A DNA stretch of 63,524 bases, filler included, from Malassezia furfur (lineage: Eukaryota): the NCBI GenBank assembly GCA_052055015.1. It is 29 parts of 29 records of this genome, joined end to end, with 100 filler letters (N's around TTAATTAATTAA, not from the genome) between each part and the next. Parts side by side here need not be neighbours in the genome. Positions count along the whole stretch, not along the records: positions 22,446 to 24,555 come from JBQJIT010000977.1; 28 more parts are not named here. The stretch is one strand, 5' to 3'. The notes under the pieces were generated by a model. It ran no database searches and was not told the DNA's origin. It saw only the letters and a list, made by a program, of their open reading frames with translations. Shown here piece after piece: positions 17,988 through 24,655 of the stretch; positions within the stretch are counted from its first letter, which is position 1, and each line of letters opens with the position of its first letter. The position numbers were made by a program, and so were the translations under genes.

Positions 17988-20120
17988 CGGGTACGTCGTG
18001 CGCACCGCGAGGTGCACCGCACCTGGCGCGGCCCATCTCGCGGGCGAGCGCGTGGGCCACGTCGGCGTACGTGGACCGTGCGCCGAGCACCGTGTCGAAG
18101 CCGACGTAGCCGACCCACTCGACGGCGGCGCGCGTCACCACCACGCACTCGCCCGGGACGAGGCGCAGGCGCGAGACGACCATCGGGTACGTCGTGCGCA
18201 CCGCGAGGTGCACCGCGTCGCACACGACGGCCGTGCGCAGGCGGTGCGGCCGCAGCGCGCGCGCATACGCATGCAGCTTGGCCGCCGCGACGACGGCGCC
18301 TTCGAGCAGGTTGGCGTACACGTCGCGCGGCGTGTTGAGCTGCGCGCTCGTAAAGAGCACATGCGTGCGTGCGCGCACGGCGTGGAGCAGGCGGTGCGCG
18401 AGTGCCGCGCCGCGCCGCGTCGGCGGCACCGTCAGCGTGTCGCCAAAGTGGAACGGATAGCGCGCGACGTCCGCGCGCACCGCCAGCGTTCGAGGGCAGA
18501 TCGTGTAGCCGCACCACGGCACGGGCGCCGCGGCGTCGATGCGCGGCACGAGCGCCGCGCCCACGGCCACGTCAAAGTTGACCAGCGTCTTTTCCGGGGC
18601 AATGGCGCACCCGTGCCGCGGCAGGTCGGTGTGGAGCGCGCGGCAAAAGCGCGCGGCGTCCGTGCGCGAGGGGGTCAGGAAGAGAAAGTCGTCCGTGTAG
18701 CGCATCAGGCACCCCTCGCGGCTCGTGAGCTGCGCGGCGCGCTCGACGTCGGCGAGCAGCAGATTGCACAGCACGGTCGACAGCACCGAGCCTTGCGGCA
18801 CACCGACGCGCTGCCGGTACAGGTCGCGCCCAAAGCGCACGACGCTCTGCGTGATGTGCCGCTCGACCTGCGCCAGCACCTGCGCGGCGTCCGTCAGGGC
18901 GTACGCGACGTGGTCGACGACGACGGCGTGCCGCGCGCTCGGCTGTACCGCGAGGAAGCGGGGGTACGCCGCATCGTCCACCGCGCGGCGCACCGTGTGC
19001 CGCGCGAGGCGCCCGAGCGCCGGCTTGAGCTGCGTGTAGCGCTGCACGACGTACGCCGCGCCGCCCGCAAGCAGCGCACGCACGAGGTGCAGCAGGCGCG
19101 CGTGGTCGAGCGAGTCGAACGCCGCGCGTACGTCCGCACGCACCGCGTACAGCATCGGCACGCGGCCGTACGTAGCGACGAGCGCCGCTTTGTACGCGCC
19201 GAGGCGCGCGTGGATGGCATTCGCGCCGTGCACCGCCGCACCGTACGCGCCCGGCCGGCGCGCGGCCTCGAGCGCCAGCACGTCAAACGCGGTCTGGAGC
19301 CGCGCATTCACCGAGCCGCCGAGCGTGTGCCGACGCAGGTTGACGATCGGGCGGATGGACGTGTCCTTCGGCACGAGGCGCACCTGCGCCACGGGCACGG
19401 CGTGCCCCGCGTCGCGCTCGCGCACAAACAGCCGGCTGCGTAGGCGCGCGAGCAGCGGCGCACTGACGCGCGCCCACAGGTCCTGCCGGAAGTAGAGCAC
19501 GCGCTGCCGAAACGCCGCCGTCTCGGTGGCATAGAACGTCGTGCGCACCAGCGGCAAGACCAGGTGCTCGAGCAGCCAGTACACGACGGCGTGCACGAGC
19601 GCCGTCGCGCGCGCATGGGCCGCGGCCGAGCGCGCGCGCCCCGCGCCGAGCCACGCACAGTGCGACACGCGGAACGACGCGAGTGCGTCGTGCAGCGTGA
19701 CGCGCTCGTGCCGGCGCGCGCACACGAGGCGTGCGGCCGCCGCACACAGCGTGCGCCGGTTCGCGTGCGAGCCGACGAGCGCGAGCGGCACGACGCGGCG
19801 CACCACCGTGCGCACGTAGAAGCACACGCGGCTGTGCGGCGTCGCGTACCGGTAAAACTGCGGCTCGCCCCGGCTGCGTGCGCGCGCGAGCTGCTGCAGC
19901 CCGCGCATCTGCGCACTGTCGTGCGCTGCAGGTGCCTGCGTACTCGCCGGCACGGGCGGATCGGCGCGCGCCGGCAGCGGCGCGTCGTCGAGCGCGTCGA
20001 GGTCCGCCGGGCGCAGCCGCGGGAGCGCCGTGGGGCAGCACGCGTTGAGCGCCGCCGCGTAGTGGAAGCGGTCGTGCCGGCGCACCATGGCCGCGAGCGC
20101 CGCACGCACGCGGCGCAGGC
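17988..20120 (-). CDS. TERT: Telomerase reverse transcriptase (TRBD + RT + CTE; both ends truncated)
   Basis: CP-like LNACCP, QFP-like TPHSRVCFYVR..VP..L.GS..N, T motif TTFYATE...LYFRQDLW, motif 1/2 VRLVPK..SIRPIVN, motif A RADVRAAFDSL, motif B' GVPQGSVLSTVLC, motif C RYTDDFLFLT and motif E PWCG. Confidence 0.95.
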
Positions 20121-22445: not shown

Positions 22446-23793
22446 CCTGGTCGGCCTTGGTGCCCGTGGTCTGCACCGCCTTGCGCGTGACGGGCGGCTT
22501 CGCATAGTACGCGAGGCCCGCGTGCGACCAGTCGCGCAGAATCCGGCGCGCGGCGCCAAACGTGTCCGGTACTCCCTTGCGCTTCAGCCGCCCGACGGAG
22601 CGCGCGACACCAATGAGGAACTGCTCGGTATCCGCGCGCGCCTTGTCCTGCGCAAGCAGCTCCTGCTCCAGCAGCGCCTCGTCCGCCGGCGCGTCCTCGT
22701 CGAGGCTCGGTTGCGCGGGTACAAACGAGCCAAATGCCGGCGTGCCGTAGATCAGCATGAGGTCCTCCGGGTGAGCGACGCGCGAAAGCAGCGTGCTCAC
22801 GAGCTGCAGCGGGTCCTTGAAACGCTGCAGGTTGCCCTGATTCCGCGCGAGGATCCACAGGGACTTGCGCCGCTGCTTTTCCAGGCGCGCGAGCTCGCGC
22901 TGTGCATCTTCTTCATCGTCGTCGTCCTGCTCTTCGTCGTCGTCATCCTCCTCGTCCTCCTCGTCCTCCTCGTCGCTGTCTGCGGCCGCAGGCACCGACG
23001 CGTGCATGGGGACCATAGCCGGCGTGTCGTACACGAGCTCGTCGCCGTCCTTTTCCTGGAATGCGCCCTGCAGCGCGGTCGCGAGCGCCGTCTTGCCGGC
23101 ATTTTCCATGCCAATGACCGCGGCGGCCTTCTTCTTGAGCTTGGGCGCGAGGTACTGCGCAAGCGCGTCGATGCCCTGCGCCTGCGTGGACGGCGGCACA
23201 CTCACGGGGAACACGGCGCGCTTGGTATCCAGCAGCGCATACACCCACGCGGTGAGCACCTCGGCAGGCACCAGATCCGCCTTGGTCAGCGCCAGAACCA
23301 CCTCGGGGCTCTTTTTCGTGAGCTGCGTGTCGAGCCAGGCGCTGCGGAACGCCGACGGATCGCGCGCGTCGAGCGCGTACACGAGCACGCCGACGTCGCT
23401 GCTGCGCGTAAGCACGTTTTCGAGCGGCGTGCGCAGCAGCGGCGCGTGCGGCAGATTGAGCGGCTCTTCGTAGCCCGGCGCAGGCTGATGCTCCTCGTCG
23501 TCCTCCTCGTCGTCGGACGCGTCACCCGCCTGCATCACCTTGGGCTGCTGCACGCCCATGCGCTGCTCCTCGGCGATGCGGCGCTTCTGCTCGATCTCGT
23601 TGAGCAGCTGCTCCTTGTACGGGAAGCTGTTGGGAATGCCCGGGTCGTCGCGGCGGCGCGAGCGCCACTGCGGGTTCGGATTCCGCTTGGCCTCGCGGCG
23701 CTGCTTGCGGTGGTGCTCGCGCACCTTGCGATTCACCTTCTCGCGCTGCTTGGTTGTCTGGCGCTTGCTCGCACGTTTCTTCACGCGCACCAT
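22446..23793 (-). CDS. NUG1: Nucleolar circularly permuted GTPase Nug1/Grn1/GNL3 (3' truncated)
   Basis: Basic N-terminus KVREHHRKQRREAK...DPGIPNSFPYKE, then LDARDP, LTKADL, GMENAGKT, DTP and VARSVGRLKRKGVPD..AAR.ILRDW. Confidence 0.9.
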
Positions 23794-23850
23794 CGTGGCA
23801 GAGAGCAGCCGCCAAATTTTTTCGGCGCGCACGTGGCGTGTGCAGGGACC

Positions 23851-24482
23851 ATGGCGACGGCGCACAGCGTCCTTGTGCACGCGCAGGGCGTCTCGTACAC
23901 GGCGAGCGTGCTCGTCGAGGGCACCGGCGTGCACATAGGCGTCGTGCGCAACATTGGCGAGCACGCGCGGCGTGCGCCGTGGTGGATCGCCTACGTACCG
24001 TCCCCCCACCGCGCGCCGAGCGCGGCCGGCGCCGGCGACGCCGCTGCCGCGTGGGCGGAGCGCGTCGTGGAGCACTGGGCGGGCGTGTCGCTCACCCTGT
24101 CGGATCCCGACACGCCTGAAGAGGACGCCGAGAGCGATGCGCCCGAGGAGGTGTGCACAGTGCGTGTGCCGCTACCGACGCCGCTCGTCGTGCAGGTGTC
24201 GCCGGCGAGCGAGCGCGCGAGCAGCGTGTACGCTGCGCGCCTCGTGCACGCCCTGACCGAGCACACGCAGCGCCAGGTCGCAGCGCTCGAGGCGGCGGTG
24301 CGTGCGTCGCATGCGGCGCTCGACACCGAGCGCGCCAAGTACCGCGAGCTGCTCGCGGCGCATCCCCCCAGCACCGCGCGGTACGCCGCGGCGTCGATCG
24401 TGCACCCCGGGCGTATCCGGTACGTGGCGCATACTGACGCAGCCGCCAGACGGACCTGGGCGGATTCGAAGGCGATCCGTGA
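23851..24482 (+). CDS. 202-aa protein, candidate PAXX/XRCC4-superfamily NHEJ factor; intron 24420-24442 (23 nt)
   Basis: Beta-rich head, predicted coiled coil, and a spliced tail ASIVHPGRIRRQTDLGGFEGDP* resembling the PAXX C-terminal SLINPG..K....G..F motif. Confidence 0.55.
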
Positions 24483-24655
24483 CGTATTTCCCCCCCCCCT
24501 CTATGGCATGGGCGCCTGCGCCTGCCGCGCCTCGTCGCGCTCTCTCCGCAGCTGCNNNNNNNNNNNNNNNNNNNNNNNNNNNNNNNNNNNNNNNNNNNNT
24601 TAATTAATTAANNNNNNNNNNNNNNNNNNNNNNNNNNNNNNNNNNNNNNNNNNNN

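Follow-up and report, generated by a model that had tools for sequence, protein, structure and literature searches.

A window of 63,524 nucleotides from the assembly GCA_052055015.1 of the skin yeast Malassezia furfur, made up of 29 parts joined end to end, carries at 23851-24482 on the + strand a small two-exon gene whose spliced product of 202 amino acid (aa) residues is probably a divergent Malassezia orthologue of PAXX, a paralogue of XRCC4 and XLF that helps in human DNA break repair, where it normally assists a ligase. The best reading is that this protein would bind Ku70 and possibly work without DNA ligase IV (LIG4). The gene is real, mis-annotated and present genus-wide in Malassezia. 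It begins with ATG at 23851 and ends with the stop codon at 24480-24482. Exon 1 (23851..24419 (+), codons 1-189 plus two bases) encodes a globular head, a long helix and the first half of a Ku-binding-type motif, and is separated by a phase-2 spliceosomal intron (24420..24442 (+), 23 nt) from exon 2 (24443..24482 (+)), which provides the last 13 codons, including an LGGF element, and the stop.

The C-terminal tail points to PAXX. In human PAXX (C9orf142; PDB 3WTD, 3WTF, 4WJA, 8BH3 and 9CQ3; PMC10413649, PMC4339890), residues 177-204 contact Ku70 at two patches, and the changes S184A, N187E and the double V199A/F201A each abolish Ku binding (PMC10413649); primers in the same paper show the human stretch S184-L-I-N187-P-G. 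The Malassezia tail presents S182-I-V-H185-P-G (three other orthologues have N for H), after which come basic residues and F198 (codon at 24465-24467 (+), within LGGF). S, H/N and F, whose human equivalents S184, N187 and F201 are each required for Ku binding or recruitment (PMC10413649), thus occur in the human order with an S-to-F spacing of 16 residues vs 17. SIVHPGRI (24394..24417 (+)) is the counterpart of human patch 1 (S184, N187), and the exon 2 element that of patch 2. The first-pass annotation, which had named the gene as PAXX-like, expected orthologues to conserve S-(I/L)-x-(H/N)-P-G...F, and indeed S-[IL]-[VA]-[HNC]-P-G-R-[IL] plus F at a spacing of 16 was found in 6/6 records that have both elements, from five distinct sources. 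Among 21 proteins tabulated, 12 have the first block, nine the second and six both, always 16 residues apart, the proteins without one block being partial or mis-spliced calls. Across 10 near full-length sequences, the S-x-x-H/N-P-G-R-I block has the highest mean modal identity (0.89), compared with 0.72 for the last exon, 0.77 and 0.49 for the second and first halves of the helix, and 0.47 for the head.

The putative partner was also inspected. Ku70 H163, R165, F471 and R517 form the PAXX site in the human complex (PMC10413649). The R165 counterpart is R in all 16 aligned sequences, and that of R517 is R in 9/16 and V in the other seven, which we read as probable intron read-through or misalignment. 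The tail is predicted to bind Ku70, a prediction on which the kept Ku70 arginines, set beside the altered H163 position, bear indirectly. Folding Ku70 P0033 (residues 18-575) together with the P0012 tail (262-295) of the same species, without alignments or controls, scored 0.00 twice and is uninformative for or against binding.

Structural modelling by AlphaFold2 (18 sequences, monomers) supplied a second line of evidence, using exon 1 of the window gene (predicted local distance difference test, pLDDT, 86) and a complete M. japonica orthologue (pLDDT 85). Both models show seven strands with a single helix following strand 4, then a helix of 50 residues and a tail without structure (pLDDT <50 in the M. 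japonica model). In the M. furfur model the elements run E3-11, E14-23, E26-33, E44-50, H61-74, E80-84, E101-106, E112-118 and H121-170, in agreement with the strands and short helix that had been named from sequence, and an XRCC4-type head, as first proposed, is predicted at 23857..24204 (+) (residues ~3-118, the helix lying between strands 4 and 5). Foldseek with the M. furfur model returned, within the first 50 ranks, 27 listed matches, all of them XRCC4-superfamily chains or fusion constructs; the first rows were CCDC61 and XLF (E 3e-4 to 1e-3), and PAXX was not among the matches listed and appeared on realignment. Some of the 27 are, judging from their titles, XRCC4 fusions. Membership of the XRCC4 superfamily is secure on these models.

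On realignment of the M. furfur model, plant PAXX ranked third (Z 9.3, root-mean-square deviation (rmsd) 3.7, 116 aligned), human PAXX reached Z 7.6-7.8 (rmsd 4.0-4.2, 113-116 aligned), and SAS-6, XRCC4 and XLF reached up to 7.6, 7.6 and 7.0, respectively. The M. japonica model gave plant PAXX at Z 10.2 (rmsd 2.8, 114 aligned), CCDC61 at 9.9, XRCC4 at 9.2 and human PAXX at 8.7-9.0. When this model was searched against 48,161 chains, ranks 1-17 were all superfamily members, led by Arabidopsis PAXX (Z 9.9, rmsd 2.7, 110 aligned), and the first unrelated row had Z 6.1; human PAXX scored Z 8.8 with 18% identity vs 6-10% for XRCC4, XLF and CCDC61. The identity to human PAXX, 16-17% for the M. furfur model and 18-19% for the M. 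japonica model, is the highest in these alignments.

The head is followed by a single straight stalk helix of 50 residues in both models (24211..24360 (+), residues 121-170), with no fold-back helices and, by analogy with the family, presumably dimerising as a coiled coil. A long heptad helix had been claimed from sequence: the long helix stands, and the heptad is weak, with at best 7/15 a/d positions occupied by large hydrophobics. The end of the stalk (24319..24345 (+)) is strikingly constant, L157, E160, R161, K163, Y164 and R165 being invariant in 13/13 sequences, and the Ku-type motif begins ~11 residues beyond the stalk. Since the alignment pairs human PAXX 5-142 with 2-132 in the M. japonica model, whose helix reaches 153, this conserved end is an extension beyond the human PAXX helix. 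In the head, a second conserved feature is an acidic loop (24103-24147 (+), residues ~85-99; mean modal identity 0.72), DTPEED in the window and D-T-P-[DE]-E-D in the family, which could be a phosphorylation or docking site.

Homologues were few, with three and seven proteins from word-based protein searches and 12 from HMMER against 1.84 billion representatives, and every named one is from Malassezia. The complete annotated orthologues P0011, P0015 and P0018 have 185-205 residues, vs 204 in human PAXX. A Pfam scan of 14 homologues gave a single match to a superfamily head, namely PAXX in P0012, and a weak one (13.6 bits, E 0.05, model positions 85-187). In the ESM Atlas, where scores below 0.9, as all were here, count as leads only, P0011 retrieved first a cluster of 68 proteins without names, most of them from Basidiomycota (0.89), then two unnamed plant clusters, and then XRCC4, PAXX, XLF and SAS-6 clusters at 0.75-0.81, a lead to the XRCC4-superfamily clan. 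Exon 1 alone gave no usable match in the Atlas, and a profile search of PDB sequences with the family alignment returned only coiled-coil noise (five matches at E 0.58-6.8).

Set against known systems, the Malassezia protein shares with human PAXX its size of ~200 residues, an XRCC4-type head (Z 7.6-9.0, 16-19% identity), a stalk without fold-back and a disordered tail in which S-[IL]-x-[NH]-P-G and basic residues precede a terminal F, with acidic residues after it. Unlike human PAXX, it has a stalk ~20 residues longer with a conserved end, a linker of ~11 residues instead of ~40, the shorter S-to-F spacing and one head helix in the models, and its genome yielded no LIG4. Arabidopsis PAXX (PDB 8P26), which the M. 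japonica model matches best in structure (Z 9.9-10.2, rmsd 2.7-2.8, 110-114 aligned) at 10-14% identity, has a C-terminal Ku-binding motif and was likewise overlooked until found by fold and motif; it works with and stimulates XRCC4-LIG4, whereas no LIG4 was found here (10.1101/2023.05.26.542399). The divergent non-vertebrate orthologues NHJ-1 of Caenorhabditis elegans and Die5 of ciliates, likened here by description only, come from organisms that both keep LIG4, and NHJ-1 functions without XRCC4 (10.1101/2023.05.26.542399). Fungi are described as generally lacking DNA-PKcs (10.64898/2026.03.12.711350).

Several results weigh against PAXX orthology. On the M. furfur model, two CCDC61 chains rank above plant PAXX (Z 10.0, rmsd 4.5, 103 aligned; and Z 9.8), and XLF comes close to human PAXX in identity (14-16%); on the M. 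japonica model CCDC61 lies within 1 Z of PAXX and XRCC4 is also high. PAXX, CCDC61 and XRCC4 are thus inseparable on predicted fold alone, and the subfamily is not fixed by it. The ESM features of XRCC4 clusters (0.81, 0.80) tie with those of PAXX (0.80). None of 15 proteins passes the 25-bit cut-off of the Pfam PAXX model (PF15384), the window protein giving no match at all; that cut-off is the library threshold, and the plant ESM Atlas clusters ranked second and third likewise have no Pfam family. No homologue outside Malassezia was found by sequence search, the HMMER profile being of limited reach as it lacked exon 2, so that orthology is untraceable by a tree. In the tail and its presumed site, human V199 is unmatched in register, with G there and L one residue earlier, and the Ku70 H163 position is occupied by S, T or I in each of the 16 sequences. 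Finally, human PAXX has nothing that corresponds to the conserved stalk end.

The setting in which such a protein would act was explored in the whole genome (G000; 13.68 Mb, 1,856 contigs), which we infer to be a two-subgenome, M. furfur-like assembly. Ku70, Ku80 and DNA polymerase X (Pol X) are each present in two copies, and the Pol X frames scanned showed no BRCT domain. LIG4 was not found with PF01068, PF04675, PF04679 or TIGR00574 in this fragmentary assembly, in which first-look candidates only were scored. The four models returned an identical set: LIG1 with a LIG1-like paralogue, a small ligase that lacks the N-terminal DNA-binding domain, and the capping enzyme, whose detection attests to their sensitivity. 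Two BRCT models gave 15 and 10 matches in G000, none of them LIG4; they correspond to RFC1, Rev1, Dbf4, Chs5, Rtt107, Fcp1 and Dpb11-like and Nop7-like proteins, the last two names and the assignment of contigs C324 to Rtt107 and C40 to Dbf4 being our own reading. By a hand tally, which ignores correlated gaps and search misses, 11 of 16 genes were seen twice and five once, giving a naive chance of 0.034 of missing both LIG4 copies. We consider it quite likely that LIG4 is absent from this genome, and the literature searched (by title and abstract opening, with few subscription papers) held no report of LIG4 loss in Malassezia. The label of non-homologous end-joining factor that the first-pass annotation had attached to the gene is accordingly in doubt, since LIG4 was not found; its PAXX-like reading is supported.

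Two ligases were considered as LIG4 candidates and rejected. The one beside Ku80 scores 375 bits for LIG1 vs 103 for LIG4 and has no BRCT domain; the small ligase (locus L011) lacks a PF04675 domain and matches nothing in the PDB at E 0.01. The small ATP-dependent ligase occurs in two copies, at L011:1048-2490 (contig C491) and L012 (contig C98), in which Pfam detects the adenylation domain only, and presumably resembles viral, bacterial or mitochondrial-type ligases. Ku80 stands head-to-head with the BRCT-less LIG1-like paralogue in both copies (contig C59, loci L005 and L010; contig C292, L006 and L009), an arrangement that, in a compact genome, is weak evidence fitting LIG4-free action.

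Because LIG4 was not found, the job of the protein is probably other than classical LIG4 joining. By analogy with the family, it would dimerise via its helix and dock each tail on Ku70, with the S-x-x-H/N-P-G half lodged in the groove that separates the Ku70 vWA domain from the core and the LGGF half resting against the C-terminal arm. A single dimer may then keep two Ku-bound DNA ends together or stabilise Ku on one end, and the longer stalk with its shorter linker would, judging from the anatomy, bring two Ku molecules closer together and hold them more rigidly. Less firmly, the role would probably be Ku end-protection at telomeres and breaks, or synapsis for a LIG1-type ligase. For the subphylum there is precedent: in Ustilago maydis, Ku is essential because of its suppression of damage signalling at telomeres, while dnl4, which is present, can be deleted without effect on growth (PMC4344518), hence a ligase-independent role of Ku. 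With slightly more doubt than belief, we propose that Malassezia lost LIG4 while keeping Ku and a conserved PAXX, which would protect Ku-bound telomeres or breaks or bridge ends for the LIG1-like ligase encoded head-to-head with Ku80, the conserved, extended stalk end serving as a site for a new partner.

An alternative to the LIG4-free part of this proposal only is that PAXX acts in ordinary LIG4-dependent joining and that LIG4 was missed, as a divergent gene or through the fragmentation of the assembly. The 1,856 contigs, the scoring of first-look candidates, the five single-copy genes in the tally and the two Pol X copies leave room for it, as does the presence of dnl4 in U. maydis. Random or ectopic T-DNA insertion also works in M. 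furfur, with some rearrangements, which speaks against a complete loss of end joining (10.1101/638429). The agreement of four ligase models on the same small LIG4-less set, the detection of the capping enzyme, the BRCT matches without LIG4 and the low naive estimate for losing both copies make this alternative unlikely, though it has to be taken seriously.

Coming to the identity of the protein, an XRCC4/Lif1 orthologue or an XRCC4-PAXX chimera, with a shortened stalk that ends in a former ligase-binding segment and a PAXX-like tail that was gained or arose by convergence, is improbable. The stalk is longer than that of PAXX, XRCC4 scores Z 7.2-9.2 and 0.80-0.81 in the ESM Atlas, and the invariant stalk end, L-x-x-E-R-x-K-Y-R, may resemble the conserved LIG4-binding stretch of XRCC4. 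Nor did G000 yield another XRCC4 candidate; the Pfam PAXX (PF15384), XRCC4 and XLF models found none, and because the PAXX model misses the window gene too, this insensitive search does not show that XRCC4 and XLF are absent. However, identity to XRCC4 chains is 6-12% vs 16-19% for human PAXX, none of the 14 homologues matches the Pfam XRCC4 or XRCC4 coiled-coil models, the stalk end falls short of the XRCC4 helix end in the structural alignment, and no LIG4 was found in G000 for an XRCC4-type stalk to bind.

Still less probable is an XLF/Nej1 orthologue, in which the basic stretch and GGF would be an XLF-type Ku80-binding motif. XLF, too, has a C-terminal Ku-binding motif that finishes with F, and its chains fill six of the ten top Foldseek rows. 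Like XRCC4/Lif1, XLF/Nej1 shares the head and stalk plan and is a superfamily member known in fungi (PMC4339890, PMC13451438). The fold-back helices that distinguish XLF (10.1101/2023.05.26.542399) are, however, absent from both models, XLF has the lowest Z of the superfamily (5.7-7.4), and its motif spans ~8 residues (PMC10413649) vs ~20 here including the patch-1 pattern of PAXX. The Malassezia protein thus differs from both families in a stalk shorter than that of XRCC4, the missing XLF fold-back, lower identity to each and a PAXX-type tail.

A structural protein of the CCDC61 or SAS-6 type, located for instance at the spindle pole body and not acting at DNA ends, is very improbable. CCDC61 and SAS-6 have the same head fold (CCDC61 Z 9.2-10.0, identity 5-15%), CCDC61 gives both the top Z and the top Foldseek row for the M. 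furfur model, and P0011 weakly matches a SAS-6 coiled-coil model (E 0.016). Both are centriolar proteins whose coiled coils are long and which have no PAXX-type tail, and Dikarya are not known to have centrioles; moreover, the CCDC61 matches are confined to the head at 7-11% identity, and the protein is short, ending in a PAXX-type motif.

The gene model itself leaves little doubt. The intron comprises a GTACGT donor, a CTGAC branch site, one base and CAG, and of the three AG acceptors tried, only the CAG ending at 24442 gives an in-contig stop; those at 24449 and 24471, like the unspliced frame, are stop-free up to the contig end. The same pattern occurs 22 times (some matches nested) in the whole window, compared with 1.0 on average and at most 3 in 50 shuffles, and the one-base spacing between branch site and CAG recurs in 15/22; a 23-nt intron is typical of this genome. 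G000 has two copies of the gene (identity 100% and 85%), and the second (locus L002), whose exon 1 translation equals the M. furfur protein CBS9595_004222, has a 21-nt intron at the identical phase-2 site and an exon 2 with 1/40 bases changed, silently. Among seven metagenome loci, L034, L035 and L037 are intron-less and encode the last-exon peptide in frame, L036 is likewise without intron and cut short, and L038-L040 have a 22-nt intron of the same phase. Intron-less orthologues encode its peptide contiguously and in frame, which indicates that exon 2 belongs to the product. Read-through would give 189 residues in L002 and >235 in the window copy, running into the convergent gene; this product is not conserved between the two copies, and therefore selection acts on the spliced frame. 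The 23-nt intron and 202-residue product of the first-pass annotation are thereby borne out by the pattern statistics, the intron of L002 and the intron-less orthologues, while its statement that the tail is lost without splicing holds for the patch-2 half and not for the patch-1 half, which exon 1 encodes.

That the intron is normally retained, giving a product that lacks the motif's second half, as several public annotations have it (read-through ends are annotated or called for P0003, P0005 and P0010), is hardly credible given the unconserved read-through products and an exon 2 that is conserved, and contiguous in intron-less orthologues. In public annotation the intron is kept in the M. 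furfur protein P0003 and apparently in P0005 and P0010, and the annotated ends of the M. furfur, M. yamatoensis and M. pachydermatis proteins look like read-through; the same type of tail as predicted here is annotated for M. japonica, M. sympodialis, M. vespertilionis and Malassezia sp. CBS 17886. Across the window, motifs of 20-26 nt that resemble introns are frequent, and such micro-introns were overlooked in public models of this gene and of Ku70.

The true context of the gene is confined to 22446-24555 (contig C977), adjacency across the joins of the window being artificial. The parts follow in falling size order, from ~2.17 to 2.0 kb, and each join is a 12-base stop-codon linker between two runs of 44 N. 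The head-to-head neighbour (22446..23793 (-)), truncated by the contig end, encodes a NUG1/GNL3-type GTPase (PF08701, E 6e-24) and serves as a synteny marker; the same head-to-head arrangement with the orthologue in L002 and in 7/7 metagenome loci supports orthology among these genes. The 57 bp between the divergent start codons (23794..23850; 95 bp in L034, ~69 in L038) hold a T-tract (23817-23822) followed by CACGTG (23830-23835), both also found in all loci examined (L002, L034, L038 and L040), which may be a ribosome-biogenesis promoter element common to NUG1. A coiled-coil gene converges at 24501-24555 (-), as in L002, with 18 bp between the stop codons; its L002 part gave no Pfam match. 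The C-terminal part of a telomerase reverse transcriptase (TERT; PF12009, PF00078) lies at 17988-20120 (-) on a separate, unlinked contig, and linkage of the PAXX-like gene to TERT or MDM10 in the window was rejected, the contigs being artificially joined.

Yeast has been described as lacking PAXX (PMC4339890; 10.64898/2026.03.12.711350), and a survey of PAXX names animals and their relatives, nematodes, amoebozoa, ciliates, excavates and plants, with no fungi in its accessible text (10.1101/2023.05.26.542399). The accessible sections of a 2026 review of fungal repair contain neither PAXX nor Malassezia (PMC13451438), M. globosa appears in a table of Ku proteins (PMC11936186), and we found no report of a fungal PAXX in the literature searched as above. 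An overlooked intron of ~20 nt has left several public gene models without the second half of the motif. The roles of PAXX and LIG4 are hard to separate in mammals; if LIG4 is truly missing, M. furfur, which is transformable and editable, would offer a direct test of PAXX apart from LIG4 ligation, and the loss would bear on how Malassezia integrates foreign DNA. If true, Malassezia would be an example from nature of PAXX acting in the absence of LIG4.
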